A stretch of 62,110 nucleotides of DNA, filler included, from Actinomycetota bacterium (GTDB taxonomy: Bacteria > Actinomycetota > Acidimicrobiia > IMCC26256 > VFJJ01), in assembly GCA_009886115.1 (NCBI GenBank). It is 4 parts of 4 records of this genome, joined end to end, with 100 filler letters (N's around TTAATTAATTAA, not from the genome) between each part and the next. Parts side by side here need not be neighbours in the genome. Positions count along the whole stretch, not along the records: positions 35,492 to 62,110 come from VFJJ01000125.1; 3 more parts are not named here. One strand, written 5' to 3'. The notes under the pieces are model-generated. The model worked only from the letters and a program-made list of their open reading frames with translations. It had not been told where the DNA came from and ran no database searches. Below, in pieces: positions 36,898 through 62,010 of the stretch (the stretch's first letter is position 1; every line of letters starts with the position of its first letter). The translations under genes and the position numbers were made by a program.

Positions 36898-37010
36898 GGC
36901 CCGAACCGAGCCAGCCGTGTGCCGCGCGGCAGGGGCCACCGCTCCCGGAACCCGGCGCCCGCCACTGATCGACCCGAGCACGTTTCCCCTGGTTGTGGGA
37001 GGCTTCTCGG

Positions 37011-39674
37011 GTGGAGATCCTGCCGACCGGCACCGTCACCTTCCTCTTTTCCGACATCGAGGGATCGACGCGTCGGTGGCAGGAGGACCCCGGGGCGATG
37101 CAGGCGGCGTTGTCCGAGCACGACGCGATCTGGCGGGACGTGATCGACGCGCGACATGGGTATCTGTTCAAGCACACCGGGGATGGCGTGGTGGCGGTGT
37201 TCCCTTCAGCGTCGGACGCGGTGAAGGCGTCGGTTGATGCGCAGACGCGCTTGGTCGACGTGTTGCCGGTGCGGATGGGCCTGCACACTGGCGAGGCCGA
37301 GTTGCGCGACGGGGACTACTTCGGGTCGACGTTGAACCGGTGCGCTCGCCTGATGGGTGTGGCCCATGGTGGGCAGGTCGTGTGCAGCGCAGCGACCGCC
37401 GAGTTGGTGCGCGATCGAGGCGATCTGCGCGATCTCGGTGAGCATCGGCTGCGCGATCTCAGCCGGGCGGAACGGGTGTGGCAGGTCGGCGGTGGTGATT
37501 TCGCGGCGTTGCGGTCGCTGAACAACCTGCCGACGAATCTGCGGCCGCAGCTGTCGAGCTTCGTGGGCCGTGAGGAAGCGGCGGTGGCACTGACCGAGGC
37601 GGTCGGTGCGGCGCGGCTGGTGACGTTGACCGGACCGGGTGGTGTGGGCAAGACGCGGCTTGCACTCCAGGTCGCCGCGGAGGTGCTGGCGCGTTTCGAG
37701 AACGGTGCCTGGCTGATCGAGCTGGCCCCGATCACCGATGGCGCGGCGTTGGCGGAGGCGGTGGCGGCGGCGTTGGGTGCGGTGCCGCAGCCCGGTCTGT
37801 CGTTCGCCGCGAGCGTGGTCGAGTTCGTCCGTTACAAGCAGATGTTGTTGGTCTTCGACAACTGCGAGCACGTGGTCGATGACGTGGCGGGGTTGATCGA
37901 GCAGATCCTGGCCGACGCGCCGCGCGTCCACGTGCTGGCCACGTCGCGTGAGGCGTTGGCGCTCGAGGGTGAGTCGATCCGGCCGGTTCGGCCGATGACG
38001 GTCGATGACGAGGCGTCCGAGGCGGTTCGTCTGTTCGTCGAGCGGGCCCGCGGCGCGCGTCCGGAGTTCGCGATCGACGACGCGAACCGGTCGAGTGTGC
38101 TGGACATCTGTCGGCGTCTCGACGGCGTGCCGCTGGCGATCGAGTTGGCGGCCGCCCGGTTGGGCGCGATGGGCCCGGCCGACATCGCGCAGCGACTCGA
38201 CGAGCGGTTCCGTCTGTTGGCGGCCGGCCGGCGGGCACGGGTGGAGCGGCACCAGACGCTGCGCGCCACCGTGGACTGGTCGTATCAGCTGCTCGACCCG
38301 GCGGAGCAGACCGTCTTCAACCGGCTCGCGGCGTTCAGCGGCGGTTGGACCGCCGACGCCGCGCAGGCGGTGATCTTCGACGACACGATCGACGAGTGGC
38401 AGGTGCTGGACTTGCTGACGCATCTGGTCGACAAGTCGATGGTCAATGCGACGCCGGACGACCAGGGCGGTGTGCGGTACTCGATGCTCGAGACGCTGCG
38501 GCAGTACGCGCAGGAACGGCTCGACGAGCGCGGCGAGGTCGACGAGTTGCGGGCCCGCCACGCCCGTCACGTCGCGGCGTGGCTGGCGCGGATCGAGCCG
38601 CTGCTGAAGAGCCGCGACGAGCCCGTGTGGCTGCCGCGGCTCGCGGCCGAGCGCGACAACATCGTTGCCGCGGTCGACTGGGCCCTCGGTGGAGATGATC
38701 TCGACACGGCGATCGCGATCGTCGCGGCGCTCGACTGGCACGCCTTCATGGTGCCCGGCCTGGGCCTGACAACGCTTCCCTTGGTGGTGACGAACAGCGA
38801 TCGATGTGAGGATCATCCCGCCTATGGCTCGGTGGCTGCCGCGGCTGCCCAGTCGCTCTGCGTCGCGGGACGCATGGCGGAAGCAATTGATCTCGCCGAG
38901 GGTCTGGTGCGGCAGGACCGATCGAACTGGCTGGCGTACTCCGCGTTGGCGTTCAGCTACAACCACACGAACCGAGGCGCCGACGCGCTGGCTGCTGCCG
39001 AACGCGTGGTCGACATCAGCCGAGTGGCTGACGATCCGTGGGTGCTCGCGAGCGCGCTCAGCACCCTCAGCACGGTCCGGGTCACGTATACGGCAGACCC
39101 GAGTGCCCGCGGGGAGGCAGCTGAGGCAGTCGCGCGTGCCGAGCGGATCGGGTGTCCGACGCTGTTGCACCTGGCCTACTTCACGCGTGGGTTCGTCGAG
39201 GAGTACTCCGATGCCGAGCAGGCAGTGCAATGGTGCCGCAAGGCGATTGACGTTCTCGAAGCGTCGTCCGCATCGGCGCTGCTAACCGGCAGCGCATACG
39301 CAACGATCTGTCTCGCGGCGGCCGAGCTCGGCGATCGCGACCTCTTGTTGACGTCGCTGCGCGACGCGGTGACCTTCACCCGCGCCTCGACGGTGTGGTT
39401 CGCGCTTTACCACGCGTGCGAATACGGCGGCCAGGCGCTGGTTCGGTTCGGGCATGTCGAGACCGCGGTCCGCCTGCTCGGCGCGGCCTCTACGCAACGC
39501 CCCCTCGGTGGCGCCGAGATCGAGAAGCGTGCCGAGGCGCTTGCCGAGGCTCGCGCACTCCTCGCGGAAGCGGCCTACGAAGCGGCCTTCCACTTCGCCG
39601 ACGGCATGAACCCCGACGAACTGGCGGCGTACGTGCTGGCCGAGGTCGAACGCCTGGAGCGCGGCGATGCCTGA
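37011..39674 (+). CDS. Class III cyclase-STAND(NB-ARC)-helical repeat protein, copy A
   Basis: FSDIEGST, KHTGDG, RMGLHTG, DYFG..LNRCAR; GPGGVGKT, DNCEH, ATSRE, DGVPLAIELAA. Confidence 0.92.
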   Translation: MEILPTGTVTFLFSDIEGSTRRWQEDPGAMQAALSEHDAIWRDVIDARHGYLFKHTGDGVVAVFPSASDAVKASVDAQTRLVDVLPVRMGLHTGEAELRDGDYFGSTLNRCARLMGVAHGGQVVCSAATAELVRDRGDLRDLGEHRLRDLSRAERVWQVGGGDFAALRSLNNLPTNLRPQLSSFVGREEAAVALTEAVGAARLVTLTGPGGVGKTRLALQVAAEVLARFENGAWLIELAPITDGAALAEAVAAALGAVPQPGLSFAASVVEFVRYKQMLLVFDNCEHVVDDVAGLIEQILADAPRVHVLATSREALALEGESIRPVRPMTVDDEASEAVRLFVERARGARPEFAIDDANRSSVLDICRRLDGVPLAIELAAARLGAMGPADIAQRLDERFRLLAAGRRARVERHQTLRATVDWSYQLLDPAEQTVFNRLAAFSGGWTADAAQAVIFDDTIDEWQVLDLLTHLVDKSMVNATPDDQGGVRYSMLETLRQYAQERLDERGEVDELRARHARHVAAWLARIEPLLKSRDEPVWLPRLAAERDNIVAAVDWALGGDDLDTAIAIVAALDWHAFMVPGLGLTTLPLVVTNSDRCEDHPAYGSVAAAAAQSLCVAGRMAEAIDLAEGLVRQDRSNWLAYSALAFSYNHTNRGADALAAAERVVDISRVADDPWVLASALSTLSTVRVTYTADPSARGEAAEAVARAERIGCPTLLHLAYFTRGFVEEYSDAEQAVQWCRKAIDVLEASSASALLTGSAYATICLAAAELGDRDLLLTSLRDAVTFTRASTVWFALYHACEYGGQALVRFGHVETAVRLLGAASTQRPLGGAEIEKRAEALAEARALLAEAAYEAAFHFADGMNPDELAAYVLAEVERLERGDA

Positions 39675-42327
39675 GGAGACCGCCCGAGTGCAGAACACGC
39701 CGACCGGCACGGTGACGTTCTTGTTCACCGACATCGAGGGTTCGACGCGGTTGTGGGAGGAGCGACCCGAGGAGATGCGTGCCGCGCTGGCGGAGCATGA
39801 TGCGATCGTGCGGGGCGCGATCGATGCGCACGATGGGTATGTGTTCTCGACGGGTGGTGACGGGTTCGCGGTGGCGTTCTCGCGGGCGGGGGACGCGGTC
39901 GATGCGGCGGTACGGGCGCAGGCGGCGCTGGCGGGGCATCGGTTGATCCGGGTGCGGATGGGGTTGCACACGGGGGAGGTGCACGAGCGCGGCGGGGACT
40001 ACTTCGGTCCGGCGGTGAACCGTGCCGCACGCCTGATGGCGATCGGTCACGGCGGGCAGGTGCTGGCGTCTGCGGTCACCGCGGCGTTGCTCGACGCTGC
40101 GGTACCGACGCGTGATCTGGGTGAGCATCGGTTGCGGGATCTCTCGGCGCCGCAGCGGGTGTTGCAGCTGGGTGACGGTTCGTTCCCGGCGTTGCGGTCG
40201 GTGGATGTGGTGCCGTCGAACTTGCCGGTGGTGTTGACCGAGTTGGTGGGCCGCGGTGACGACATCGCCGAGTTGTCGCAGCTGGTACGCCGCGACCGGA
40301 TCGTGACGCTGACCGGCACGGGTGGGGTGGGCAAGACCCGGCTGGCGCTCGGTGTCGCGGCGGCGGTCGCGGCCGAGTTCTCGGATGGCGTGTGGTTGGC
40401 CGAGTTGGCGCCGGTCGCCGACTCGGCCCGGATCGACCAAGCGGTCGCCGCCGCGTTGGGGGTCGGTGTTGCCGTGGACGGCCGCGCGGGTCTGGTCAGC
40501 TACTTGCAGGCCCGACGACTGGTGTTGGTGCTGGACAACTGTGAGCAGGTTCTCGACTCGGCCGCTGAGTTCGTCAGCGCCGTGGTCTCGGCGGCGCCCG
40601 AGGTGCATGTGATCGTGACGTCGCGTGAACCTCTGGGGGTCGACGGCGAGGTGGTGCGGCGCGTGCGATCCCTCGGGTTGCCCGACGATGCCGATGACCC
40701 GTCCGCCATCGACGGGTCGGATGCCGTTCGGATGTTCGTCGAGCGCGCCGGCGCGGCGAGTGGCGACTTCCAGCTCAACGCCGGCAACCGCGCCGCCGTG
40801 GCGGAGGTCTGCCGCCGCCTCGATGGGATTCCCTTGGCGATCGAGCTTGCCGCGGCCCGCGCGCGCGCCATGACCCCGGCGCAGATCGCGGCGAGGCTCG
40901 ACGAGCGGTTCCGGTTGTTGTCGGGCGCGCGCCGGACACAGGAACGACACCGCACCCTGCAGGCCGCGGTGTCGTGGTCGTATGACTTGTTGTCGCCCGA
41001 GGAGCAACGGGTGTTCTGGCGGCTGTCGATCCTCCCGTCGAGCTTTGATACGGCCGCTGCGGACGCGGTGGCCGGTGACGACGCCGACGTGCTCGATGAT
41101 CTGCTGCGATTGGTGGATCGGTCGTTGGTGCAGCACGACCCGATCACCGGCCGCTACCGGTTGTTGGAGACGTTGCGGCAGTTCGGCGCCGACCGCGCGG
41201 TCGAGGCGGGCGAGGCCGACGAGATCCGTGGCCGCTACGTCGACCACTTCCGAGGAGTCGTGGCGACCAACGGTCCGCGCTACGAAGCTCCCGAGTCCTT
41301 CTCCGCCGCCGAAGAAGCACTGAGCGTCGAGCTCGACAACATCACGGCGGTTGCGGGGCTGCTCGTCGACGACCAGGCGTGGCGTCAACTGCACGACCTC
41401 TGCCTGAGCATGGCGGCGTTCATGAACAACTACGCCCCGGCGAGCTTCGCCCGGTGGCTCGGCGCGGCCACTGATGCCGGCGCGTGCGTCGATGACCAAG
41501 AGCGAATCGACGCGCTCGGCTGGGTCGCGTACGGCCTTTTCAATTCGGGCGGCCTCGATACGGCGGCCGGTCGCGCCACCGAGAGCCTCGCGCTCGCCGC
41601 GCGACGCGACGGCGATCCGAGCCCGTGGGCGTTGTGGACACTCGGCACCCTCGCACAGGTGGCGGGCCGGTGGGCCGACTGCCTCGCCCACTTCGATGCA
41701 GCTGTCAACGCCACGGCCCATCGCGCTTGCTATACACAGTTGCTCATCCGGGCCACGTGGCTCCAGGGATTCCTGCTCGATCGAGGCTTCGATGGGAACG
41801 AGCCGGTGATCGAAGAGGTGCTGCGGGAGACGAGCGAACACCCCGTCACCTCCGTCATCGCAGCGCTGGCCGTCGCGATGCCGCTGGCCGTCGCGGGCGA
41901 CGCCGAGCGAGGTCGGCGGTATCTGGAGGCGGTATCCGAGCAGTCCATCGCCAACCCGGTGCTGCGCGGGTGGTTCAGCATGGCGAAGGCGATGGCGTTG
42001 ATCGACGCCGCACCACATGCAGCCGTCGGCTACGCCATCGAGGCGGTGCATTCGAGCGACCGTGCCGGGAACGCGTATTCGAAACACGGCGCAACGCTCA
42101 CGCTGGCCGTGCTCGCCGGCCGCATCGGTCGAGTCGACCTCGCGGCCCGGCTCCATGCGCACACCGAGGCGTTTCCGGACTTCCATGGAGCTCACGGGTA
42201 TGTGTGGCTGCTCGTCGACATCGACGCCGCGCTCGTCGCGGCCGGCATGCCAACGCCGGTGACCCCCCAGGAGCTCACCCGGCAGGAACTGTTCGCGATC
42301 ATCGCCGAGTTGGAGGCCGAATCATGA
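39667..42327 (+). CDS. Cyclase-STAND-helical repeat protein, copy B
   Basis: FTDIEGST, STGGDG, VNRAAR; GTGGVGKT, DNCEQ, GIPLAIELAA. Confidence 0.92.
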   Translation: MPEETARVQNTPTGTVTFLFTDIEGSTRLWEERPEEMRAALAEHDAIVRGAIDAHDGYVFSTGGDGFAVAFSRAGDAVDAAVRAQAALAGHRLIRVRMGLHTGEVHERGGDYFGPAVNRAARLMAIGHGGQVLASAVTAALLDAAVPTRDLGEHRLRDLSAPQRVLQLGDGSFPALRSVDVVPSNLPVVLTELVGRGDDIAELSQLVRRDRIVTLTGTGGVGKTRLALGVAAAVAAEFSDGVWLAELAPVADSARIDQAVAAALGVGVAVDGRAGLVSYLQARRLVLVLDNCEQVLDSAAEFVSAVVSAAPEVHVIVTSREPLGVDGEVVRRVRSLGLPDDADDPSAIDGSDAVRMFVERAGAASGDFQLNAGNRAAVAEVCRRLDGIPLAIELAAARARAMTPAQIAARLDERFRLLSGARRTQERHRTLQAAVSWSYDLLSPEEQRVFWRLSILPSSFDTAAADAVAGDDADVLDDLLRLVDRSLVQHDPITGRYRLLETLRQFGADRAVEAGEADEIRGRYVDHFRGVVATNGPRYEAPESFSAAEEALSVELDNITAVAGLLVDDQAWRQLHDLCLSMAAFMNNYAPASFARWLGAATDAGACVDDQERIDALGWVAYGLFNSGGLDTAAGRATESLALAARRDGDPSPWALWTLGTLAQVAGRWADCLAHFDAAVNATAHRACYTQLLIRATWLQGFLLDRGFDGNEPVIEEVLRETSEHPVTSVIAALAVAMPLAVAGDAERGRRYLEAVSEQSIANPVLRGWFSMAKAMALIDAAPHAAVGYAIEAVHSSDRAGNAYSKHGATLTLAVLAGRIGRVDLAARLHAHTEAFPDFHGAHGYVWLLVDIDAALVAAGMPTPVTPQELTRQELFAIIAELEAES

Positions 42328-44969
42328 CGGCCATCCCGACGGGCACGGTGACGTTCTTGTTCACCGACATCGAGGGTTCGACGCGGTTGTGGGAGGAGCG
42401 GGCCGCGGAGATGCGCGGCGCGTTGGCGGAGCACGATGCGATCGTGCGCGGCGCGATCGACGCGCATGGTGGGTATGTGTTCTCGACGGGCGGGGATGGG
42501 TTCGGTGCAGCGTTTCAGCGGGCGGCTGACGCGGCCGCCGCTGCGGAGCGGGCGCAGGCGGGCCTGGCCGGTCATCGGTTGATCCGGGTGCGGATGGGGT
42601 TGCACACCGGCGAGGTGCAAGAGCGCGACGGCGACTACTTCGGTCCGGCGGTGAATCGTGCGTCGCGGATCATGACGGCAGGGCACGGTGGGCAGGTCTT
42701 GCTGTCGCAGACGACCGCTGATCTGCTCGGCCGGGGGTACGTGTTGGTCGATCTCGACGAGCACCGCTTCGCCGGGCTGTCGTCGGCACAACGAGTCTTC
42801 CAGCTGGGCTCGGAGTCCTTTCCGCCGTTGCGGTCGTCGACCGCGGTCGTGTCGAACCTGCCGGTGGAGCGGTCGGTGTTCGTGGGTCGTGAGCGGGAGT
42901 TGGCGGCGGTCGCAGGGTTCGTGCGTTCCGGTCGCGTGGTGACGTTGACCGGGGTGGGCGGGGTCGGCAAGACCCGGCTCGCCATCCAGGTCGCGGCGGG
43001 GTTGGTGGAGGAGTTCCCAGCGGGGGTGTGGCTGGTGGAGCTCGCGCCGTTGATCGACTCGGCGTTGGTGGCCGGGGCGGTCGCGTCGGCGATCGGGGCG
43101 CCGCCGAGCCCGGGGGTGGAGCCGATCGAGGTGGCGTGCCGCTTCCTCGAGCACAAGCGGGCGTTGGTGGTGCTCGACAACTGTGAGCACGTGATCGACG
43201 CGGCGGCCGCGTTGGTCGATCGTCTCGCGGATGCCGCACCGCGCACGAACGTCGTTGCGACGAGTCGTGAGCCGTTGAGCGTGCGGGGCGAGGTGGTGTG
43301 GCGGGTGCCGTCGTTGTCTGTTGCCGATGACGCGACGGGCGATGCGGTGGCGTTGTTCGCCGAGCGGGCCGGGCAGGTGCGCTCGGGCTTCGCGCTCGAC
43401 GACGCGAATCGTGATGCGGTCGTGCGGGTGTGCCGGCGGCTCGACGGCATCCCGCTGGCGATCGAGCTGGCGGCGGCGCGGGCGCGGTCGATGTCGGTCG
43501 AGCAGATCGCGTCGCGGCTCGACGAGCGGTTCCGGCTGCTGACGCGCGGTGGGCGCACTGCGGTGCCGCGTCAGCAGACCCTCCAGGGCGCGATCGACTG
43601 GTCCTACGATTTGCTGGCCGACGACGAACGCGACCTGTTCGATCGACTCGCGGTCTTCGCCGGCGAGTTCGACGTCATGGCGGCCGCCGCGGTCGGCGGG
43701 GTCGAGGACTTCGAAGCGCTCGATCTGCTCGAACAGCTCGCCGACAAATCGATGGTCGAGGCCGACCCGGCGAAGGACCACTATCGATTGTTGGAGACGC
43801 TGCGCCAGTACGGGTGGGACCGCCTCACCGCCTCGGGCCATCTCGCCGAGGCCCGCGACGCTCACGCCGCGTACTTCGCCGGGGTGGTCGGCGACGCGGT
43901 AGAGGTGATGCGCACCGCGGGCCGCCAAGTCGAGGCCCTCGACCGGCTCGACGCGCAGTATGACAACCTCCGTGCGGCGCTCGCGTATCTGATCGACAGC
44001 CGGGACGCCGATGCCGCGACGCGCCTGGTGCGTCGCTTGGGCGGGCTGTTCAACGTCCGCCACCCCCGCGAAGGCCTCGCGTGGTTCCAGGCCGTCATCG
44101 AGATCGCCGACGAGCTCCCGGCCCGCGTGCGCGCTCGCCTGCACACCGACGCCGCCCACGCGGCCATGAATGCCGGTGACCTCGGTAACGAGTTCGCGTA
44201 CGCGCAGAACGCGATAGACGACGGCGGCAGCGAGGCCCCCGCCTTGGCGCATGCGTTTCTCGCGGACTGGCATCTCTGGAACGACGAGCCACAGGACGCG
44301 CTCGAACACCTGGAACGGGCCGTCGCTGCCGCCCAAGATCCGCTCACGACGATGATGGTCGGGCCCATGCGCATCCAAGCGTCGAGCTCGCTCGGTGACG
44401 AGGCCGAAACCCGCATTCAGGTGGCGGTGCTCATCTCCCAAGCCGAAACGCTCGCCGATCCGACGTTCCTCGCTGCAGCGTTTCAGATCGGCGGCCAAGC
44501 GCTGGCCGTGCTCGGCCACACCGACGAAGCCGTGGTGCACTATGAGGCCGCGCTGCGGCATGTGGCCGCCGCAGGTGAAACCATGACCAACATCGTCCTG
44601 GCCACCCTGGCGGTCGAGATCGACGACCCCGAACGCGCGGCAGCCCTGTTGCGCGTCGCGATTCCTCTCGCCCGCAACCAGGTGGGAGCCAAGTTCCAGA
44701 TCTACCCGATGGTGGCCGCCGCGAAGATCGCTGGAAACCATGGTCGTTCGCACGAGTCGGCCCAACTCCTGGGCGCGACCGAACGATGCTTCGAGCACGC
44801 GGGCGTGAAGGGGAACCGTTACTCACTGCTCTGGCGCGATCGGATTCTCGAACAGCTCGCCGCAATCCTCGGCGCCGACGCCGTCGCCCACGACCTCGAA
44901 GTGGGCCGCCGCCTCTCGGCCGACGACGCGCTCAAGCTGGCGCTCGACTGCCTTCCGGAGTCCCGATAA
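42324..44969 (+). CDS. Cyclase-STAND-helical repeat protein, copy C
   Basis: ATG overlapping the copy B stop; STGGDG, VNRASR; GVGGVGKT. Confidence 0.92.
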   Translation: MTAIPTGTVTFLFTDIEGSTRLWEERAAEMRGALAEHDAIVRGAIDAHGGYVFSTGGDGFGAAFQRAADAAAAAERAQAGLAGHRLIRVRMGLHTGEVQERDGDYFGPAVNRASRIMTAGHGGQVLLSQTTADLLGRGYVLVDLDEHRFAGLSSAQRVFQLGSESFPPLRSSTAVVSNLPVERSVFVGRERELAAVAGFVRSGRVVTLTGVGGVGKTRLAIQVAAGLVEEFPAGVWLVELAPLIDSALVAGAVASAIGAPPSPGVEPIEVACRFLEHKRALVVLDNCEHVIDAAAALVDRLADAAPRTNVVATSREPLSVRGEVVWRVPSLSVADDATGDAVALFAERAGQVRSGFALDDANRDAVVRVCRRLDGIPLAIELAAARARSMSVEQIASRLDERFRLLTRGGRTAVPRQQTLQGAIDWSYDLLADDERDLFDRLAVFAGEFDVMAAAAVGGVEDFEALDLLEQLADKSMVEADPAKDHYRLLETLRQYGWDRLTASGHLAEARDAHAAYFAGVVGDAVEVMRTAGRQVEALDRLDAQYDNLRAALAYLIDSRDADAATRLVRRLGGLFNVRHPREGLAWFQAVIEIADELPARVRARLHTDAAHAAMNAGDLGNEFAYAQNAIDDGGSEAPALAHAFLADWHLWNDEPQDALEHLERAVAAAQDPLTTMMVGPMRIQASSSLGDEAETRIQVAVLISQAETLADPTFLAAAFQIGGQALAVLGHTDEAVVHYEAALRHVAAAGETMTNIVLATLAVEIDDPERAAALLRVAIPLARNQVGAKFQIYPMVAAAKIAGNHGRSHESAQLLGATERCFEHAGVKGNRYSLLWRDRILEQLAAILGADAVAHDLEVGRRLSADDALKLALDCLPESR

Positions 44970-45043
44970 CCGATCGCCGGTCGCCGGTCGCCCATGGTTG
45001 ATCGACCCGAGCACGTGTCCCCTGGTCGTGGCAGGCTTCTCGA

Positions 45044-50376: not shown

Positions 50377-50461
50377 CCCCGCACCTCGATCATGGCGTCC
50401 GGACCAGAGGTACCGACTGGTTCACGAGCAGAGCGTCCGGTGGCCGTGGGAGGCTTGTCGG

Positions 50462-53173: not shown

Positions 53174-55812
53174 GCACGCTTCCCTCCGGCACCGTGACGT
53201 TCCTGTTCTCCGATATCGAGGGTTCGACGCGTCGGTGGCAGGACGAGCCGGAGGCGATGCGGGCGTTGCTCACCGAGCACGATGCGATCTGGCGCGACGT
53301 GATCGACAAGCACCGCGGCCACTTGTTCAAGCACACCGGTGATGGCGTGGCGGCGGTGTTCGGGTCGGCGGGCGACGCGGTGACCGCGGCGGTCGACGCA
53401 AAGGCGCGGTTGGCTGATGTGTTGCCGGTGCGGATGGGGTTGCACACCGGTGAAGCGGAGCTGCGCGAGGGGGACTACTTCGGGTCGACGTTGAACCGGT
53501 GCGCGCGCCTGATGGGCATCGCCCACGGTGGTCAGGTGGTCTGCAGCGCGGCGACGGTCGAGTTGGCGCGCGATCGCGACGATCTCCGAGATCTGGGCGA
53601 GCATCGCCTCCGGGACCTGAGTCGCGCGGAGCGGGTGTGGCAGATCGGTGCGGGGGAGTTCCCGGCGTTGCGGTCGTTGAGTGCCACGCCATCGAATCTG
53701 CCGACGGTGTCGACGGAGCTGGTGGGCCGTGGTGACGACGTCGAGGAGTTGTCGCGGCTGGTGCGCGGTGATCGGGTGGTGACGTTGACCGGCACGGGTG
53801 GGGTGGGCAAGACCCGCTTGTCGTTGGCGGTCGCCGCGGCAGTGGCGCCGGAGTTCTTCGACGGAGTGTGGTTCGTCGAGCTCGCCCCGGTGGCCGACGC
53901 AGCGGGGATCGAGCGTGCCGTGGCGTCGGCGCTCGGCGTCGGCGCCACGACCGACATCGGCCGGGCCGGTTTGGTGAACTACCTGCGCGGTCGGCGGTTG
54001 GTGCTGGTGCTCGACAACTGCGAGCACGTGCTCGACGATGCGGCCGACTTCGTCACCGCGGTGATCGGCGCGGCGCCCGAGGCGCACGTGGTGACGACGT
54101 CGCGCGAGCCCCTGGGGGTTGACGGCGAAGTGGTCCGCCGGGTGCGTTCGCTCGGTGTGCCCGGCGACGCGGAGGATTCCGCGGCCGTCGACGCGTCGGA
54201 CGCGGTGCGAATGTTCGTGGAACGGGCGTCGGCCGCGAGCGGCGACTTCGTCCTGAACGCCGGCAACCGTGCGGCGGTGGTGGAGATCTGTCGCAAGCTC
54301 GATGGGATCCCGTTGGCGCTCGAGCTCGCGGCGGCGCGCGTGCGGGGGATGACCCCGGCCCAGATCGCGGCGCGGCTCGACGAGCGGTTCCGGTTGCTGT
54401 CGGGGGCTCGTCGCGCCCAGGAACGGCACCGCACGCTGCAGGCCGCGGTGTCGTGGTCCTATGACCTGTTGTCCCTTGACGAAAAGCGCGTGTTCCGCCG
54501 GTTGTCGGTGTTCCCGTCGAGTTTCGACGCGGCCGCCGCCGACGCGGTGGCCGGTGACGGCGGCGACGTGTTCGATGTCGTGCTGCGTCTGGTGGATCGC
54601 TCGTTGGCGCAACACGACCCCACCACCGGCCGCTACCGGTTGTTGGAGACGTTGCGGCAGTTCGGCGCCGAACGCGCCGTCGACGCGGACGAGGCCGACG
54701 AGGTCCGCGATCGCTACGTCGACCACTACCTGCAGCTGGCGCGCGACATCGGTCCGGGATTCAAGGACCCGAGGCGATTCGTGAGCGCGGTCGCCACGCT
54801 CGAGGCAGAGATGGAGAACCTCGCCGCCGTCGCGGAGCTGCTCTTCGACGACGGGAGGTGGCGCGAGCTGCACCAGTTCTGTCTGGATGCACACGCCTTC
54901 CTGGCGTCGAGTGCGCCGCGGTCGTTCGAGCGCTGGCTCGACGCCGCGGTCGACTCGGACACCAGCGCCGGCACGCAGGAACGAATCGACGCGCTCGGCT
55001 GGATCGCGTGGAGCGCGAGCGCGTCGGGAGCGATGGAGCTCGCCGCGCGGCGGGCGGCCGAGAGCGTCGCGCTCGCCACCGACTGCGGCCTCCCCCCGAG
55101 CCCGGCGGCGTTCTGGGTCCTTGGTGTTCTGGCGGGCATCGAGGGTCGCTCGGACGACTACCTCGGCCACGCGACGGCCGCGATGCAGACCGCGGAGCAG
55201 CGGGACGACCGGTTCAACGCGCTGTTCATGCGGGCCGGCTGGCTCGACGCGCATCTGCGGGTCCACGGATACGACGCCGACGAGGCGCTCGTCGAGGACG
55301 TGCTCCGCGAGACCATCGAACACCCCGCGGCGTACGCATCCGCGGTGCTCGGCGCGGCGATGACCGCGGTGTTGGTGGCGCGCGACCTCGAACGCGGGCT
55401 GCGCTACCTCGAGACCGTCGTCGACCGCCGGACGATCGGCCCGGTCCCCGAGACGTGGCTCGCCATCCTCCACGCGTTGGCGCTGACCGACGTCGCCCCG
55501 CACGCGGGGGTCGGCTTCGCGGCCCGGGCTGCGCGTCTCAGCGACCGGTCCGGGTCGGAGTGGGGGACGTACGGCGCGGTGCTGGCGCTCGCGGTGCTGG
55601 CCGCCCGCACCGGCCGCCTCGAGGCCGCACAACAGCTCTCCGCCCACGCCGAGGCGTCGCCGCACTTGCATCTGACCAACTGGTTCGGGTGGCCCCGCGC
55701 CGACACGCTGGCCGCGCTCGAGACCGCCGGCTGTGCGATCCCGGTCGTCGCCCACGAGCTCTCTCGCCAGGAGCTGTTCGCGATCGTCGCGGAGTTGGAG
55801 GCCGCATCGTGA
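53170..55812 (+). CDS. Cyclase-STAND-helical repeat protein, copy G
   Basis: ATGA overlap; KHTGDG, LNRCAR; GTGGVGKT. Confidence 0.92.
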   Translation: MSTLPSGTVTFLFSDIEGSTRRWQDEPEAMRALLTEHDAIWRDVIDKHRGHLFKHTGDGVAAVFGSAGDAVTAAVDAKARLADVLPVRMGLHTGEAELREGDYFGSTLNRCARLMGIAHGGQVVCSAATVELARDRDDLRDLGEHRLRDLSRAERVWQIGAGEFPALRSLSATPSNLPTVSTELVGRGDDVEELSRLVRGDRVVTLTGTGGVGKTRLSLAVAAAVAPEFFDGVWFVELAPVADAAGIERAVASALGVGATTDIGRAGLVNYLRGRRLVLVLDNCEHVLDDAADFVTAVIGAAPEAHVVTTSREPLGVDGEVVRRVRSLGVPGDAEDSAAVDASDAVRMFVERASAASGDFVLNAGNRAAVVEICRKLDGIPLALELAAARVRGMTPAQIAARLDERFRLLSGARRAQERHRTLQAAVSWSYDLLSLDEKRVFRRLSVFPSSFDAAAADAVAGDGGDVFDVVLRLVDRSLAQHDPTTGRYRLLETLRQFGAERAVDADEADEVRDRYVDHYLQLARDIGPGFKDPRRFVSAVATLEAEMENLAAVAELLFDDGRWRELHQFCLDAHAFLASSAPRSFERWLDAAVDSDTSAGTQERIDALGWIAWSASASGAMELAARRAAESVALATDCGLPPSPAAFWVLGVLAGIEGRSDDYLGHATAAMQTAEQRDDRFNALFMRAGWLDAHLRVHGYDADEALVEDVLRETIEHPAAYASAVLGAAMTAVLVARDLERGLRYLETVVDRRTIGPVPETWLAILHALALTDVAPHAGVGFAARAARLSDRSGSEWGTYGAVLALAVLAARTGRLEAAQQLSAHAEASPHLHLTNWFGWPRADTLAALETAGCAIPVVAHELSRQELFAIVAELEAAS

Positions 55813-58517
55813 TGGCGATTCCTTCCGGCACGGTGACGTTCCTGTTCTCGGACATCGAGGGTTCGACGCGTCGGTGGCAGGACGAGCCGGAGGCGATGCG
55901 GGCGTGGCTGGTGGAGCACGATGCGATCTGGCGTGAGGTGATCGAGAAGCACCGGGGTCATTTGTTCAAGCACACGGGTGACGGCGTCGCGGCGGTGTTC
56001 TCGTCGGCGTCTGATGCGGTGGACGCGGCGGTCGACGCAAAGGCGCGGTTGGCCGAGGTGTTGCCGGTGCGGATGGGGTTGCACACCGGTGAAGCCGAGT
56101 TGCGCGACGGAGACTATTTCGGGTCGACGTTGAACCGGTGCGCGCGCCTGATGGGGATCGCGCACGGCGGCCAAGTGGTCTGCAGCGCGGCGACGGTCGA
56201 GTTGGTGCGTGATCGCGATGATCTGCGCGATCTGGGTGAGCATCGTCTCCGGGACTTGAGTCGTGCGGAGCGGGTGTGGCAGATCGGCGGCGGCGAGTTC
56301 CCGGCGTTGCGTTCGTTGACCGCGGCGTCGACGAACCTGCCGTCATTGGGGAACGCGTTCATAGGTCGGGTGGCCGAGCTCGACGCGGTTGCGAAGGAGT
56401 TGTCCGAGGCGCGGCTCGTGACCTTGACCGGGGTCGGCGGGGTGGGCAAGACCCGGTTGGCGATGCAGGTTGCGGCCGAGGCGCTGCCTCGCTTCGTCGA
56501 CGGGGTGTGGTTGTGCGAGCTCGCCGCGGCGGCGAACGCCGACGAGATGATGCCCGTGGTGGCCTTGGCGTTGGGCGTGGTGCAGCGCCCACAGATGACG
56601 CTGACCGAGTCGATCGTCGACTTCCTGCGCCCCCGGCAGACCCTCATCGTGTTGGACAACTGCGAGCACCTGCTCGACGCGGCGGCCGAATTGGTCGAGG
56701 ACGTGCTCGCCGGCGCACCGGGTGTGCGGGTGTTGGCCACGAGCCGCGAGGGCTTCGGGATCGCGGACGAGCGCGTGCGCCCGCTGCGGTCGCTGGCGAT
56801 CGCGGCCGAGCACACCGAGACGAGCGACGCGGTCGTGCTCTTCGTGGAGCGGGCACGCGCGGTCAACCCCGACTTCACGCTCGATGCCGCGTCGGCACCC
56901 GTCGTCGCCGATCTGTGCCGGCGGCTCGACGGGATCCCGCTGGCGATCGAGCTGGCGGCCGCGCGTGTGACCGCGATGAGCCCGGCCGAGATGGTGTCGC
57001 ACCTCGACGAGCGGTTCCGGCTGTTGACGGGCGGGCGACGGGGCCGCGTCGAGCGGCATCAGACCCTGCGCGCCGCCGTCGAGTGGTCGTATTCCTTGCT
57101 CGGTGAGGTCGAGCGCTCCGTCTTCGACTGCATTGGTGTGTTCCCCTCGAGTTTCGACGAGGCTGCGGCGGTCGCGGTGTGTGCCGACGATGGCGTCGAG
57201 CGCTGGGATGTGATCGACGCACTGGCCGCGTTGGTGGCGAAGTCGATGATCGGCACCGAACGCGACAGCGGCACGACCCGTTATCAGCTGCTCGAGACGC
57301 TTCGGCACTTCGCACGCGATCGCGCGCACGACCTCGACGCGCTGCGCCGCCGCCACGCCACCTACTACGCCACGTTCGCCGAGCAGCTCGGGGCAGGTTT
57401 GCGCACGCCCGATGAGCTCGTGTGGCGTCCCCGGCTCGGGGTCGAGATCGACAACCTGCGCGCGGCGACGGCCTGGGCGTTCGACGCCGCGACGCTCGAG
57501 GAGGTTGTGATCGGTGCGCGCATCGTCGACGCACTCGTCTACGACGGTGGTACGGCAAGTGCGTCGTTTGGGATCCAGCGGTGGGCGGCTCCCGTGTTGG
57601 ACCGTGTCGACGGGTTCGAACCCCGGCATCGGGCAGCGCTGTGTGCCGCGGCCGGCGTCGAGGCGTTCCAGGCGGGCGACATCGAGGGCGGCCGGGCGCT
57701 CGCTCGCCGGGCGATCGCCGATTCGGTCAGCCTGACTCCGGCGTGCGCGGCCGCCGTGGCGTGGCTGGCGGGTTGGGAGGCCGTCCTCGGCAACGATGCC
57801 GCGTTGGCGGCGGTTCTGGCCGACGCCCATCGGTTGTTGGATGCGGTCGATGTGGGACGGGATTATTGGGCCGCCGCGCTGGCGACTGTCGAGGCGTTGG
57901 CCCCGGGCCTGGCCGGCACGTTCGATGGTGCCGTGGCCGAGAATGCGGTGGCGTTGGCCCGGCGATCGGGAGTTCCGAACCTGCTCTTCTCGGCCCTCGG
58001 AGCCTTGGGACGGGTGAACTTCAACGCCGACCCTGACGTTGCCCTGGCTGCGTACGACGAGGCGAGCGCGCTCTTCGATGCCGGCGCCGCGTCCGGGCTC
58101 TTCACGATGATGCAGCAAGACACGGCAGTGCTGCGGGCCGCGACCGGAGACCACATCGGGGCGGCCCGCGCCGCGCGCGCCGCCATCGAGCACGGGGCCC
58201 GCAACGGTGACCGCATCAACGTGGTCGACACGCTTGCGATCGCCTCGTTCGTGGCGGCGGTTCGACGTGATCTCGCGGTTTCGGCGACGCTCGTCGGGGC
58301 CCGCAACGGCCCCGCGCTCGGCGCGATCCGGCCCGGGTCGGTCTCGATCCACGTCCCCCTCATCGAGGCGGCGCTGGCGCGGGTGGCCGCCGAACTCGCC
58401 ACCGTCGCCTATGCGGCCGCGTACCAGCGCGGTGGGGCGATGAGCTACGACGAGATCGTCGCGTACGCGCTCGAGGAGCTCGGGCGGATGGCGTCCGAGC
58501 CCGCGTCCAGGGGATGA
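55812..58517 (+). CDS. Cyclase-STAND-helical repeat protein, copy H
   Basis: GTG 55809 or ATG 55812 overlapping the copy G stop; KHTGDG; GVGGVGKT. Confidence 0.92.
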   Translation: MAIPSGTVTFLFSDIEGSTRRWQDEPEAMRAWLVEHDAIWREVIEKHRGHLFKHTGDGVAAVFSSASDAVDAAVDAKARLAEVLPVRMGLHTGEAELRDGDYFGSTLNRCARLMGIAHGGQVVCSAATVELVRDRDDLRDLGEHRLRDLSRAERVWQIGGGEFPALRSLTAASTNLPSLGNAFIGRVAELDAVAKELSEARLVTLTGVGGVGKTRLAMQVAAEALPRFVDGVWLCELAAAANADEMMPVVALALGVVQRPQMTLTESIVDFLRPRQTLIVLDNCEHLLDAAAELVEDVLAGAPGVRVLATSREGFGIADERVRPLRSLAIAAEHTETSDAVVLFVERARAVNPDFTLDAASAPVVADLCRRLDGIPLAIELAAARVTAMSPAEMVSHLDERFRLLTGGRRGRVERHQTLRAAVEWSYSLLGEVERSVFDCIGVFPSSFDEAAAVAVCADDGVERWDVIDALAALVAKSMIGTERDSGTTRYQLLETLRHFARDRAHDLDALRRRHATYYATFAEQLGAGLRTPDELVWRPRLGVEIDNLRAATAWAFDAATLEEVVIGARIVDALVYDGGTASASFGIQRWAAPVLDRVDGFEPRHRAALCAAAGVEAFQAGDIEGGRALARRAIADSVSLTPACAAAVAWLAGWEAVLGNDAALAAVLADAHRLLDAVDVGRDYWAAALATVEALAPGLAGTFDGAVAENAVALARRSGVPNLLFSALGALGRVNFNADPDVALAAYDEASALFDAGAASGLFTMMQQDTAVLRAATGDHIGAARAARAAIEHGARNGDRINVVDTLAIASFVAAVRRDLAVSATLVGARNGPALGAIRPGSVSIHVPLIEAALARVAAELATVAYAAAYQRGGAMSYDEIVAYALEELGRMASEPASRG

Positions 58518-58521
58518 CCCG

Positions 58522-61221
58522 GTGAAGAGCACTGCCACCGGCGCCGTGACGTTCCTGTTCTCGGACATCGAGGGTTCGACGCGTCGGTGGCAGGACGAGC
58601 CGGAGGCGATGCGGGCGTTGCTCACCGAGCACGACGCGATCTGGCGCGACGTGATCGACAAGCACCGGGGTCACTTGTTCAAGCACACCGGTGATGGCGT
58701 GGCGGCGGTGTTCGGGTCGGCTGCTGATGGGTGCGCGGCGGCGCTGGATGCACAGGCGCGGCTCTGTGACGTGTTGCCGGTGCGGGTGGGGTTGCACACC
58801 GGTGAGGCCGAGCTGCGCGACGGGGACTACTTCGGGTCGACGTTGAACCGGTGCGCGCGCCTGATGGGGATCGCGCACGGTGGCCAGGTGGTGGCCTCAG
58901 AGGCGACCGCGGCGTTGGTGCGCGACCGCGACGATCTCAAAGATCTGGGTGAGCATCGTCTCCGGGACCTGAGTCGGGCCGAGCGGGTGTGGCAGGTCGG
59001 TGCGGGGGAGTTCCCGGCGTTGCGTTCGTTGACCGCGGCGGCCACGAACCTGCCGTCGTCGGGGAACGCGTTCGTTGGTCGCGTGGCGGAGATGGACACG
59101 GTCGCGAGGGCGCTGGCCGATGCTCGGTTGGTGACCCTGACCGGGGTCGGCGGGGTCGGCAAGACACGCTTGGCGTTGCAGGTCGCGGCCGAGGTGTTGC
59201 CACGCTTCGCGGATGGCGCGTGGCTGTGCGAGCTTGCCGCGGCGTCGAACGGCGATGACATGGTGCAGGTCGTCGCGCGGGCGTTGGGCGTCGTGCCGCG
59301 GCCGCAGATGACGCTGACCGAGTCGGTCGTCGACTTCGTGCGCGCCCGTGAGCTCCTCATCGTGTTGGACAACTGCGAGCACCTCCTCGACGACGCTGCC
59401 GTGTTGGTGGAGGACGTGCTGGCGGGGGCACCGAGGGTGCGGATCCTGGCGACGAGCCGCGAGGGCTTCGGGCTCCCCGACGAACAGGTGCGGCCGGTGC
59501 GGTCGTTGGCGGTGTCGAGCGAGCACCCCGAGACGAGTGACGCGGTGGTGTTGTTCGTCGAGCGGGCGCGCGCGGTCAAACCTGACCTGGTGCTCGACTC
59601 GTCGTCGATGCCGGTGGTGGTCGAGTTGTGCCGGCGGCTCGACGGGATCCCGCTGGCAATCGAGCTCGCTGCGGCGCGGGTCGCGACGATGACCCCGGCC
59701 GAGATCGTGGGGCATCTCGACGAGCGATTCCGCTTGTTGACGGGCGGCCGCCGGGGCCGCGTCGAGCGCCATCAGACGTTGCGCGCCGCCGTCGAGTGGT
59801 CGTATTCGTTGCTCGACGACACGGAACGTGCCGTGTTCGATCGGCTCGGGGTCTTTCCGTCGAGCTTCGACGAGGCCGCCGCGGTCGCCGTCTGCGTGGG
59901 CGAGGGGATCGAACGGTGGGACGTGATCGACGCGCTCGCGAGCCTGGCCGCGAAGTCGATGATCGGCGCGGAGCAGTCCGAGAGCTCGACGCGCCATCAG
60001 CTCCTCGAGACGCTGCGCCACTTCGCGCGTGACCGCGCCGGCGATCTCGACGAGCTGCGCCGCCGCCACGCGGTGCACTTCGCGGCCTTCGCCGAGCGAG
60101 CCGGGGTAGGACTGGCCAGCCCCGACGAGCTCGCGTGGAAGCAGCGGCTGGCCGTCGAGATCGAGAACCTTCGGGCCGCGGTCGACTGGAGCGTCGATGC
60201 ACGGCCACTCGCGGACCTGAACCTGGGCGTCGGGATCATCGAAGCATTGCTGGGCGAGGCGGTCACGACGATGGCGTGGGGAATCCACTCGTGGGCGTTA
60301 CCGGTGCTGCTTCGAGCCGGCGAGCTCGATGGACCGCACAGTGCGACCATCTCGGCGGCGTCGAGCATGCACTTCTTCAACCAGGGCGACATCGCACAAG
60401 GCCGTGATCTCGGCCGGCGTGCCGTTGCCGATTCGGCGGCGTTCACGAACGCGTACTTCGCCGCGATGATCTACTCGGCCCTGGCGGACGTGCTCCTCGG
60501 CGAGCCGGTCGCCGCCGTGGCGACGATCGCCGCCGGGCAACGCCTGCTGATGTCGGAGACTGATCCGGCCGAGTGGCAGCGGTGCCGGATGCAGATCGCC
60601 GCCGCCTCGATCCACGGGTTCCTGGGTGACCACGCAGCCGCGCGGGCCGCGGCTGCGGAGGCCGTGGTCGAGGCTCGCCGATCACGCCTGCCGTCGTTCC
60701 TGGCCGGCGCCCTGACGGTGTACGGGCATTACCAGTGCGAGGTGGATCCGCAGGAAGCCGATCGGTCGTTGGGCGAGGCGATCGGGTTGTTCGAGTCGCT
60801 CGGCGGTGGCTCGATCTTCCCCGGCGCGCTGATGGACATGGCCGTTCTGCGCGCCGCCGAGGGGGACGTTTCTCGCGCCGCCGACCTGGCACGGACGTCG
60901 GTCGAGCAGTTCGTCCGCGACGGGTACCGACAGGACCTGGTCGACGCCTTGTCGGCGGCGACGACCGTGTTCGCCGCGCATCGTGACGGCGCGGACGCGG
61001 CCGCCACGGTCGACGGCGCGCGCCGCGGACCGGTCCTCGGACAGCTGATGAGCGGGTACGCCGCGCCGCATCGATCGCGCATCGAGGCCGTACAGGAGCG
61101 TGTGGCCGCTGAACTCGGCCCTGACGCGTACGAGGCGGCTCGACAGCGGGGCGCCGCGATGACCTACGACGAGATCGTCGCGTACACGCTCGACCAACTC
61201 GCGCGGATCGCCGACTCGTAG
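58522..61221 (+). CDS. Cyclase-STAND-helical repeat protein, copy I
   Basis: KHTGDG, LNRCAR; GVGGVGKT. Confidence 0.92.
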   Translation: MKSTATGAVTFLFSDIEGSTRRWQDEPEAMRALLTEHDAIWRDVIDKHRGHLFKHTGDGVAAVFGSAADGCAAALDAQARLCDVLPVRVGLHTGEAELRDGDYFGSTLNRCARLMGIAHGGQVVASEATAALVRDRDDLKDLGEHRLRDLSRAERVWQVGAGEFPALRSLTAAATNLPSSGNAFVGRVAEMDTVARALADARLVTLTGVGGVGKTRLALQVAAEVLPRFADGAWLCELAAASNGDDMVQVVARALGVVPRPQMTLTESVVDFVRARELLIVLDNCEHLLDDAAVLVEDVLAGAPRVRILATSREGFGLPDEQVRPVRSLAVSSEHPETSDAVVLFVERARAVKPDLVLDSSSMPVVVELCRRLDGIPLAIELAAARVATMTPAEIVGHLDERFRLLTGGRRGRVERHQTLRAAVEWSYSLLDDTERAVFDRLGVFPSSFDEAAAVAVCVGEGIERWDVIDALASLAAKSMIGAEQSESSTRHQLLETLRHFARDRAGDLDELRRRHAVHFAAFAERAGVGLASPDELAWKQRLAVEIENLRAAVDWSVDARPLADLNLGVGIIEALLGEAVTTMAWGIHSWALPVLLRAGELDGPHSATISAASSMHFFNQGDIAQGRDLGRRAVADSAAFTNAYFAAMIYSALADVLLGEPVAAVATIAAGQRLLMSETDPAEWQRCRMQIAAASIHGFLGDHAAARAAAAEAVVEARRSRLPSFLAGALTVYGHYQCEVDPQEADRSLGEAIGLFESLGGGSIFPGALMDMAVLRAAEGDVSRAADLARTSVEQFVRDGYRQDLVDALSAATTVFAAHRDGADAAATVDGARRGPVLGQLMSGYAAPHRSRIEAVQERVAAELGPDAYEAARQRGAAMTYDEIVAYTLDQLARIADS

Positions 61222-61231
61222 CGCCGAACCC

Positions 61232-61630
61232 TCACGCCGACTGGCTGCGGGCGCGGAGCGCGGCGACGTCGAGGAGGAGGAGGAGGAGGAGGAGGAGGAT
61301 GTGCTTGCCGTCGACGTCGATCCAGCCGAGCAGGCGCAGGGCGCGGAAGGCCTTGACGACCGCTTCGCGCGACTGGCCCGACCAGCCCGCGAGGTCGTTC
61401 TGGGTGACGGGCGTGCGGAGCGCGACGGTTCCGTCGGGCCGTAGCGGCCCGCCATGTCGAGGAGTCGGGCGCACACCCGGCCGATCGCGTCGTTGGTGCC
61501 GAACTCGAGTTGGCGCGACGAACTGCCCCGCAGGCGTTCCGCGAGGAGCCGCATCAACAGGGTGGCCACGCCGGGGTGATCGTCGACGAACGCGAGGAAC
61601 GCGGCGTGCGGGACGATCAGCGCGGTGAAC
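61232..61630 (-). pseudogene. Crp/Fnr-family regulator, C-terminal half, frameshifted
   Basis: F..FVDDHP.VA..LMRLLAERLR...D..GRVCARLL, shift near 61440, then TQNDLAGWSG.SREAVVKA...LR..GWI. Confidence 0.85.
61271..61297 (+). repeat. (GAG)9 microsatellite (poly-Leu in the Crp relic)
   Basis: Seen directly. Confidence 0.95.
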
Positions 61631-62010
61631 GGGATCAGGTATCCGGCGGCAGGGCTGTTGATGTTCTTCGCCGCGTACGTGCGCTGCCCCATCTTGAGGT
61701 ACATGGGCAGAGCAGGTGTGGCTCGCAGCAGCCGAACAGCATGCGCCGATCGGGCGCCGAGGTGAACATGTCGGTGCCGCTGAACATGAGGAGTCCGTCG
61801 AGCACCCCCGAGCCTCGGTGTGCCGGCCGCACCGAGTTCCGCTCACCGACCGCCATCATCGACGCGGGGATCTCGGCGAGGAACGGCCCGAGTTGGTACT
61901 GGTCGATCGGGCGCCGGGAGAACCCGTCACCACCCCAGGTGATGCGCGTGGCCGCGCCGACTTGGTCGCCGTCGCGCGCGAATTAGATCCAGCTGTGCTC
62001 GTCCTCGGCC
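61631..62010 (-). pseudogene. GNAT-fold (FeeM-like acyltransferase) relic
   Basis: EDEHSWI*FARDGDQVGAATRITWGGDG...E...VRPAHRGSGV...GCCEPHL / YLKMG; in-frame TAA at 61983-61985 and a shift near 61705. Confidence 0.55.

Follow-up and report, generated by a model that had tools for sequence, protein, structure and literature searches.

How freely the input and output parts of signaling proteins can be re-paired between neighboring paralogs is the question raised by a locus of an Actinomycetota bacterium (Acidimicrobiia; assembly GCA_009886115.1), where nine adjacent genes, A to I, each encode a class III nucleotide cyclase followed by an NB-ARC-type STAND ATPase and a C-terminal helical-repeat region. 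The window, i.e., the whole 62,110-nucleotide (nt) stretch of DNA analyzed, is a string of five contigs joined by N-TTAATTAATTAA-N spacers. Positions 35492–62110 correspond to the whole of contig C165 (26.6 kb), which carries the array, and everything before 35492, including the region 7035–35491, is unlinked to it. The genome is a 5.4-Mb metagenome assembly consisting of 224 contigs (95.6% complete, 3% contaminated). An earlier, sequence-only reading of this stretch had proposed that the cyclase and sensor modules assort independently as the result of recombination or gene conversion at conserved blocks. The picture which we consider probable is that of tandemly arrayed, STAND-gated class III nucleotide cyclases undergoing birth-and-death evolution, in which the 0.5-kb cyclase would serve as an exchangeable cassette. 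The exchange unit is the cyclase on the one hand and the linked STAND and sensor block on the other, that is, two modules and not three.

The array extends from 37011 to 61221 and consists of nine intact genes on the plus strand encoding proteins of 879–903 amino acids, all with the same cyclase, NB-ARC (STAND) and helical-repeat organization. Its end had been placed at 59050, a position which cuts gene I after the cyclase, and the translations give 61221 as the true end. Four of the junctions are overlaps of 4 nt, and the remaining gaps measure 13, 74, 85, and 4 nt. The translations agree with the two cyclase types described earlier: the motifs RRWQ, KHTGDG, LPVR, and LNRCAR (type 1) are present in A, E, F, G, H, and I, and the motifs RLWEER, STGGDG, HRLIRVR, and VNRA.R (type 2) in B, C, and D. 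The same is true of the C-terminal signatures EL(T/S)RQELFAI.AELEA, found in B, D, and G, and G.AM(T/S)YDE..AY.L..L.R, found in F, H, and I, as well as of the distinctness of the A, C, and E C-termini, which show only 15–27% identity to the others. The cyclases are 81–93% identical within type 1 and 75–91% within type 2, vs. 53–63% between the two types. The NB regions are 73–86% identical inside {B, D, G} and {F, H, I} and 45–56% elsewhere, and the C-terminal regions group in the same way (42–52% within families, 13–27% between them). The STAND and C-terminal families are therefore the same groups, namely {B, D, G}, {F, H, I}, A, C, and E, and within the array both cyclase types are found only in the B/D/G family.

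The separate domain trees suggested earlier as a check turned out to be incongruent for the cyclase and the STAND. The tree of the cyclases places all 13 type 1 copies present in the genome, including that of G, in a single starred clade with very short end branches (0.03–0.11). In the STAND tree, G groups with B, D, and a broken gene, J, located on contig C174 (100/100), the F/H/I group and the off-array copy C192b are sister to a protein of another family bearing a different cyclase, and the type 1 bearers fall on six lineages, the sixth being counted via the 109-nt overlap between contigs C94 and C192. Approximately unbiased (AU) tests rejected congruence both ways: B, D, G, and J as a cyclase clade (p = 0.00076), F, H, I, C192b, and G024a as a cyclase clade (p = 0.00084), and, for the STAND, a clade uniting the bearers of type 1 cyclases (p = 0.00007), the latter rejection becoming marginal without G (p = 0.042). 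When relatives from three further metagenome-assembled genomes (MAGs) were added, the B/D/G family was found to root on the type 2 gene G043_C23psi; these second trees (LG+G4), which gave long-branch warnings, were built with eight distant rows left out. Among 130 proteins (FastTree), conflicts between strong splits numbered 8/30 for cyclase vs. STAND, 11/30 for cyclase vs. sensor, and 4/58 for sensor vs. STAND. The state of the substrate-site residue (Lys or a small residue) changes three times on the cyclase tree, from which the trait columns were removed, eight times on the STAND tree and 10 times on the sensor tree, as compared with approximately 41 times when the labels are shuffled. These conflicts and state changes indicate therefore that cyclase exchange recurs in the family, yet is far from free, and that STAND and sensor mostly travel together. 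To speak of independent assortment is thus an overstatement: the cyclase does part from the STAND, but the STAND and C-terminal modules have identical families and few split conflicts. The array also shows cyclase trees to be misleading as to orthology in the cyclase-STAND family.

Gene G is where the two modules can be seen to part. It follows F/H/I up to the FPALRS motif and B/D thereafter. In a MaxChi-type scan of parent triplets, the best single breakpoint in G lay at 53680–53689 in all five triplets (chi2 of 161–215 vs. permutation maxima of 15.6–20.1, 1000 permutations each), just after FPALRS and inside the interval 53600–53720 in which the switch had been expected. The description of the STAND region of G as nearly identical to that of D applies only to alignment windows 201–300 (93–98%), since the overall identity amounts to 86% at the amino acid level and 84% at the nucleotide level. 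G is a patchwork within the B/D/G family: it is closer to D up to about position 54530 (p = 0.002), and its closest sensor is that of P0002 (54%), a protein from another assembly, so that G probably carries three histories. P0002 itself combines a type 1 cyclase (81% identical to that of G and 60% to that of D) with a B/D/G STAND and sensor. The sisterhood of G and P0002 is rejected by the STAND (p = 0.006) but not by the sensor (p = 0.29), and their junctions differ. Since the cyclase is type 2-like in six of the eight rows of the B/D/G family (B, D, J174psi, G043_C23psi, P0003, and P0005, with type 1 in G and P0002) and the family roots on a type 2 gene, G represents the derived state. The end of F (ESEASV) resembles that of D (LEASV), and the start of G (MSTLP) that of E, so that the F–G junction (53155–53175) looks like the D–E junction, as would be expected had G arisen via unequal crossing-over that involved one gene like E and one like D.

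Silent sites were compared in 20 pairs of genes. At four-fold degenerate sites, the identity of the cyclase part exceeded that of the STAND part in F–H (60/80 vs. 73/151), F–I (64/83 vs. 85/158), H–I (62/77 vs. 97/167), B–D (73/93 vs. 88/161), and G–I (66/81 vs. 57/106), with Fisher p values of 1e-4 to 8e-4. A cyclase excess was also observed in E–H and E–I (p < 0.001) and, more weakly, in B–C, C–D, E–F, and F–G (p = 0.007–0.046). No such excess was found in four ortholog pairs, where the cyclase/STAND values were 0.85/0.84, 0.55/0.58, 0.57/0.67, and 0.56/0.69, the cyclase being the more diverged part in two of them. Mean four-fold identity of the cyclases was 0.74 among E–I but 0.59 when E–I were compared with seven off-array copies and 0.53 with three copies from other genomes, and E, F, G, H, and I are the most similar of the 1287 five-member sets that can be drawn from the 13 type 1 copies. 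The proportion of synonymous differences (pS) was flat between I and the off-array copy C192b (0.53/0.53/0.51), vs. 0.24/0.52/0.60 between G and I. Exact shared tracts of 47–101 nt all lie within the cyclases, including tracts of 101 and 69 nt common to B and D, except for one 48-nt tract shared by B and G. Outside the array, the type 1 genes on contigs C26 and C135 (C26:4331-4930 and C135:29039-29707), which are different cyclase genes, share an identical 109-nt end at the cyclase–STAND border, from the DLGEHRLRDLS block to NL; the leader of the C26 gene is almost exactly equal to that of the C159 gene. A and D, whose cyclases are of different types, nevertheless have their leader and start in common over 65 nt, which suggests that a 5′ border of the exchanged segment lies there.

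We regard it as very probable that this exchange is real, and the silent sites point to local gene conversion or ectopic recombination acting on the cyclases of neighboring paralogs. Recombination or gene conversion at a conserved block, as previously put forward, thus agrees with the breakpoint scans, the AU tests and the cyclase-confined silent-site excess, but what is exchanged is the cyclase and not three free modules. For the most part, conversion occurs within a cyclase type (type 1 to type 1, B to D), leaving the output class unchanged, a change of type on the B/D/G block being found only in G and, elsewhere, in P0002. Ectopic homologous recombination or conversion keeps the E–I cyclases alike, and likewise the B and D cyclases (partly also that of C), while identity of the STAND and sensor blocks across families remains at 45–60%, and at least one tract ending in the linker between the cyclase and the nucleotide-binding domain (NBD) placed a type 1 cyclase on a B/D/G block to give gene G. 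The simplest reading is that conversion is a by-product of nine adjacent copies of one conserved 0.5-kb segment.

Several points weigh against this interpretation. The cyclase silent-site excess was not significant in E–G (p = 0.12) and G–H (p = 0.095) and was absent in all five pairs formed by A with E–I (p = 0.55–1.0), so that part of the type 1 similarity is attributable to older exchange combined with purifying selection; as the sites of a tract are not independent, the Fisher p values are moreover overstated. In view of the 3% contamination, a second strain in the same bin might be the source of the off-array copies, which would inflate the effect of proximity but not the within-pair tests. 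None of the contig pieces listed in the comparison with public data (32 of 669) crosses the switch in G. Ongoing conversion might even be denied altogether, the likeness of the cyclases being put down to purifying selection and old duplications and G to a single ancient fusion: other genomes already have type 1-like cyclases on STANDs of the E and C159 families, the sensors of G and P0002 are each other's closest, with sisterhood not rejected for them, and A shows no silent-site excess. However, selection at the protein level does not raise silent-site identity, the ortholog pairs show no excess, the long exact tracts cluster in the cyclases, and conservation is often lower in the cyclase than in the STAND (among the matches listed, many pairs have a STAND identity of at least 72% and a cyclase identity of 66% or less), which makes this account very unlikely.

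It is less credible still that an assembly chimera formed at repeated cyclase sequence gave rise to G or to the gene order of the array. Several of the metagenome contigs do end inside family members, and public contigs assembled with k = 31 contain B/G hybrid pieces at the 48-nt exact repeat; one of them, X2, has B letters at 32/32 listed positions and then continues as G past this repeat (54459–54671), which is longer than k; it may be a misjoin or a real recombinant. At the switch itself (53567–53785), however, exact matches to the rest of the genome do not exceed 28 nt (in a type 1 gene), and none with B, D, or J reaches 20 nt. The contigs of the assembly overlap by 109 nt (in 118 of the overlaps counted), which exceeds the longest repeat inside the nine genes (101 nt) and suggests that the final k was above every repeat within them. 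Both halves of G differ from all the candidate parents, and P0002 shows the same combination in a separate assembly. The suspicion of a chimera, voiced in the sequence-only reading itself, is largely dispelled by the lack of a long repeat at the switch, the overlap length and P0002. In addition, four public contig sets were compared over positions 41400–61399, i.e., from the 3′ part of B onward: each of the 30 bins has depth in every one of the four runs, and the contigs listed bridge seven junctions, from B–C to H–I. These runs, which are freshwater sediment metagenomes, may be the source sample.

The class III cyclase family PF00211 was above the cut-off in all nine proteins, and PF00931 (NB-ARC) was detected in all nine at E < 0.001, at or over the cut-off in six. 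The STAND motifs (Walker A, hhhhDNCE Walker B, TSRE, G.PLA.ELAA, and the winged helix) are intact in all nine. The only Pfam TPR match among the nine proteins occurs in C, below the cut-off, and NCBIfam yielded only sub-threshold matches to LipJ and FxSxx_TPR in the four of the nine proteins scanned. G alone was modeled. As its single-sequence fold reached a predicted local distance difference test (pLDDT) score of only 43, an alignment-based model (112 sequences) was used instead, with a pLDDT of 91 and a predicted template modeling score (pTM) of 0.82. In this model, the cyclase spans residues 7–159 and is followed by a loose linker, the NBD from residue 188, and an all-helical region corresponding to the C-terminal repeats (residues ~509–879); confidence is lower in the linker (residues 161–190; block pLDDT 69, 63, and 77). 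The best Foldseek match was 6mfv, a STAND-TPR protein, and the other matches include the Ma1120 cyclase (TM 0.84–0.89 depending on the target), Apaf-1, and the NB-ARC domain of NRC1.

In the alignment to Ma1120, the two metal-binding Asp residues, the transition-state Asn and Arg, and the second substrate Asp are present in all nine proteins. The type 1 cyclases have D, K, D, D, N, and R at all six canonical adenylyl cyclase positions, the Lys of KHTGDG aligning with Ma1120 K101, the adenine-selecting residue. In type 2 this Lys is replaced by Ser, and the product is uncertain. The K101E substitution in Ma1120 was reported to decrease adenylyl cyclase activity by 92% at pH 7.5 and to raise guanylyl cyclase activity (PMC4215837). 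The type 2 cyclase is predicted from its residues to be weaker or less purine-selective, and a swap of cyclase type may retune the strength of the output or its nucleotide. Among 115 homologs, this site is occupied by Ala in 43, Ser in 30, and Lys in 42, and the other five residues are nearly always kept. As a small residue is the majority state and the other five residues are kept, type 2 is therefore a conserved variant and not a product of decay; by the same token, small residues being so common, it may be a normal active enzyme, which speaks against the predicted weakness.

STAND repeats have been reported to keep the NTPase off until a ligand binds, whereupon the proteins oligomerize, and class III cyclases to require a dimer (10.64898/2026.09.02.748808; PMC7159879). 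By analogy, the resting array protein would be an autoinhibited monomer; binding of a ligand to the C-terminal helical repeats would lead to nucleotide exchange and oligomerization, which would pair the cyclase domains into active sites. The cAMP formed would be read in trans by Crp and other proteins binding cyclic nucleotide monophosphates (cNMP), and many different inputs would feed one shared output. Thirteen cNMP-binding matches were found in the genome, an intact Crp lies 2.7 kb from the family member on contig C72, and remains of a Crp and of a cNMP-domain protein adjoin the 3′ end of the array.

On the whole, ordinary ligand-gated cAMP signaling, as suggested by gene neighborhood and conservation, is the role that we favor as probable. 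Defense ranks second. The same exchange could have occurred in an NLR-like immune repertoire in which the repeats would sense phage or foreign proteins and the cyclic nucleotide would activate effectors encoded elsewhere, a possibility which seems to us rather doubtful. The array proteins do have the tripartite anatomy of NLRs, and a preprint predicts an “immune clade 1” which includes fusions of cNMP cyclases with STANDs of the NACHT and AP-ATPase types (10.64898/2026.08.12.744502), a parallel that may extend to this family. The sensors are the fastest diverging part (42–52% identity within families), many family members are broken, the array adjoins a foreign-looking att-like tRNA half and an HTH_17 remnant, an integrase is located near a related cluster in another genome (G001), and genes of toxin-antitoxin type occur beside two other members. 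PADLOC, however, gave weak matches only, to PycC in three of the nine proteins (E 6e-5 to 5e-4) and to mad8 in a single case, and the surroundings of the array yielded no toxic effector gated by cNMP. The neighbors with a family match are mostly metabolic or regulatory (P450, SnoaL, GNAT, VOC, and MFS; 50 open reading frames scanned of 90 candidates), and the proportion of nonsynonymous differences (pN) in the sensor was lower than pS in all three full ortholog pairs (0.024/0.16, 0.153/0.46, and 0.244/0.43). Furthermore, the effector is homogenized, not diversified. A more elaborate immune version seems unlikely: the cyclase would be a two-state cassette, with Lys giving canonical cAMP and Ser or Ala another or a relaxed nucleotide, conversion would re-route sensors to another second messenger, and variants would still be arising, as the B/G hybrid contigs and the branch between contigs C165 and C141 might suggest.

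Further members of the family are present in the genome on contigs C26, C72, C94/C192, C135, C159, C174, and C219, several of which are broken or cut by contig ends. Gene J of the B/D/G family (C174:584-3220, minus strand) carries a type 2 cyclase with a frameshift and has a stop after the STAND; coupled to the type 1 gene that follows, it is a second, decaying array. Contig C174 also harbors a member with a QGEGDS cyclase which was judged by sequence to be of the LuxR type. A three-gene cyclase-STAND cluster accompanied by SnoaL-like genes is common to contig C72 and to locus L139 of a congeneric genome (G001 C308:1782-13998); it adjoins a phage integrase in the latter, and its C72 counterpart lies near Crp and another cNMP-binding gene. 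At locus L113 (G041 C274), a protein of the C159 family has gained a LuxR-like tail at its C-terminus, and its type 1 cyclase is degenerate (RHTDDG). Among 78 loci (flanks of up to 8 kb), the maximum was three complete cyclase-STAND frames per locus, so that nine is long for that sample. The closest cyclase matches among named genomes are to MAGs of Acidimicrobiales and Acidimicrobiia.

The features of contig C165 are listed in Table 1. At its 5′ end, the first 109 nt (from 35492), which belong to a GGDEF-EAL gene, are common to C141:1-109; the gene is broken off on C165, which then becomes a tRNA half, and continues intact on C141. This tRNA-Arg-like 3′ half is 81% identical to the genome's own tRNA-Arg(TCT), located on contig C95. 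The full tRNA-Arg called by ARAGORN at 35565–35639 was rejected because its 5′ part is coding sequence also present in C141. The 5′ end of C165 looks like the end of an element that occupies a secondary att site in part of the population, although no counterpart junction for this putative insertion turned up in the genome bin. Another small integrated element occurs at C86:7770-11535, where most of the sequence of a tRNA-Arg(CCG) is duplicated 3.7 kb away. The far end of C165 (62002–62110) is also a branch of the graph, common to C76:1-109, and the whole 26.6-kb contig may therefore be a variable segment. No cNMP-binding domain was found in the broken Crp remnant (61232–61614), within which a (GAG)n run at 61271–61300 corresponds to a poly-Leu stretch. 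A promoter and terminator scan of positions 35492–51000 remained at the chance level (no promoters, and eight terminators vs. 6.0 expected).

Table 1. Features of contig C165 (window coordinates).
Feature	Position	Strand	Description
tRNA-Arg-like 3′ half, att-like remnant	35590..35639	+	C165 departs here from GGDEF-EAL gene
Frameshifted HTH_17 (excisionase-like) remnant	36027..36237	-	PF12728 in two frames (E 3e-4 and 2e-4), both below curated cut-off
Glyoxalase/VOC gene directly 5′ of A	36493..36897	+	PF18029, E 6e-28
Leader and first codons of A	36966..37030	+	94% identity over 65 nt to those of D (44999-45063)
Gene A	37011..39674	+	Type 1 cyclase, NB-ARC, helical repeats; own STAND/sensor lineage; 887 aa
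Gene B	39688..42327	+	Type 2 cyclase (K to S), B/D/G-family STAND and sensor; 879 aa; alternative ATG start at 39667 possible
Gene C	42324..44969	+	Type 2 cyclase, own STAND/sensor lineage; 881 aa; 4-nt overlap with B
Gene D	45044..47689	+	Type 2 cyclase, B/D/G STAND and sensor; 881 aa
Gene E	47686..50376	+	Type 1 cyclase, own STAND lineage (ortholog piece in G043); 896 aa; 4-nt overlap with D
Gene F	50462..53173	+	Type 1 cyclase, F/H/I STAND and sensor; 903 aa
Gene G	53170..55812	+	Mosaic: type 1 cyclase, B/D/G STAND and sensor; 880 aa; model pLDDT 91
Crossover zone in G	53680..53689	+	Residues ~171-174, cyclase-NBD linker, between FPALRS and NLP
Gene H	55809..58517	+	Type 1 cyclase, F/H/I STAND and sensor; 902 aa
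Gene I	58522..61221	+	Type 1 cyclase, F/H/I STAND and sensor; 899 aa
Broken Crp-family regulator, convergent on gene I	61232..61614	-	C-helix and helix-turn-helix in two frames; 48-54% identity to intact Crp on C72
Fragment of cNMP-binding-domain protein	61710..62021	-	54% identity to N-terminal part of such a protein on C80

Proteins with the cyclase-STAND-repeat organization number in the thousands, nearly all of them untested. The array offers a natural swap experiment, since D and G have the same STAND and sensor family with a different cyclase class, whereas E–I are alike in the cyclase and differ in the sensor. It makes testable what the Lys-less cyclases (73 of the 115 homologs) produce and whether cyclase-STAND-repeat proteins serve in signaling or in defense.

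The gene family to which the array belongs is a known one. The proteins named “predicted ATPase/class 3 adenylate cyclase” have the same N-terminal class III cyclase and AAA/NB-ARC, and of 8000 candidates scored against G, 7956 reach E 1e-50 or better, many of them bearing this JGI name. The cyclase and NB-ARC layout is also that reported for the Mclx proteins Rv0386, Rv1358, and Rv2488c (PMC4452763), but the C-terminal LuxR helix-turn-helix of Mclx was not found in any of the nine array proteins by the domain scan. The array differs from Mclx and the named family in its nine tandem and mostly overlapping copies, the K or S at the substrate site and the cyclase-restricted homogenization. Regulators of the AfsR/MalT type (10.64898/2026.09.02.748808; 6mfv) likewise use a switch made of a nucleotide-binding oligomerization domain and TPRs, and are described there as regulatory and not immune. 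The output of the AfsR type is a DNA-binding domain, whereas that of the array is a cyclase; the SARP domain was absent from the nine proteins in the domain scan, and by eye no HD latch motif was apparent, LLETLR being present at the end of the winged helix.

Comparisons can also be drawn with immune proteins. Pycsar and Pucsar cyclases, as presented in 10.64898/2026.08.12.744502, have the same class III fold and a cyclic mononucleotide product, but the array cyclases are fused to a STAND, have no adjacent TIR or transmembrane effector, and show only weak similarity to PycC. All-in-one cyclase NLRs are mentioned in 10.1101/2020.01.06.895854. Related bacterial NACHT modules were reported to tend to keep similar sensors while their effectors vary (10.1101/2022.07.19.500537); the effector-STAND-repeat layout and the linked sensor are alike in the array, which is NB-ARC-like and not NACHT. 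In fungal NLRs, shuffling of the N- and C-terminal domains and possible ectopic conversion have been described (PMC13449251), the conversion described there affecting the sensor repeats, whereas here it affects the effector.

Paralogs of other proteins re-pair their input and output domains in a similar way, as in the lineage-specific expansions of histidine kinases, where domain shuffling was reported (PMC1630713). Cyclase-restricted conversion in a bacterial cyclase-STAND array was not reported in the literature searched, which covered few of the subscription papers. The gene family, the exchange of effectors in NLRs and the process of conversion are thus all known, and it is the exchange that is unusually clear here. 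The tandem adenylate cyclase arrays of Trypanosoma, which were reported to undergo gene conversion (PMC1855330), also convert within tandem cyclases; in the present array the border of the exchanged segment falls in a 10-nt zone of the linker, and a catalytic residue is toggled.

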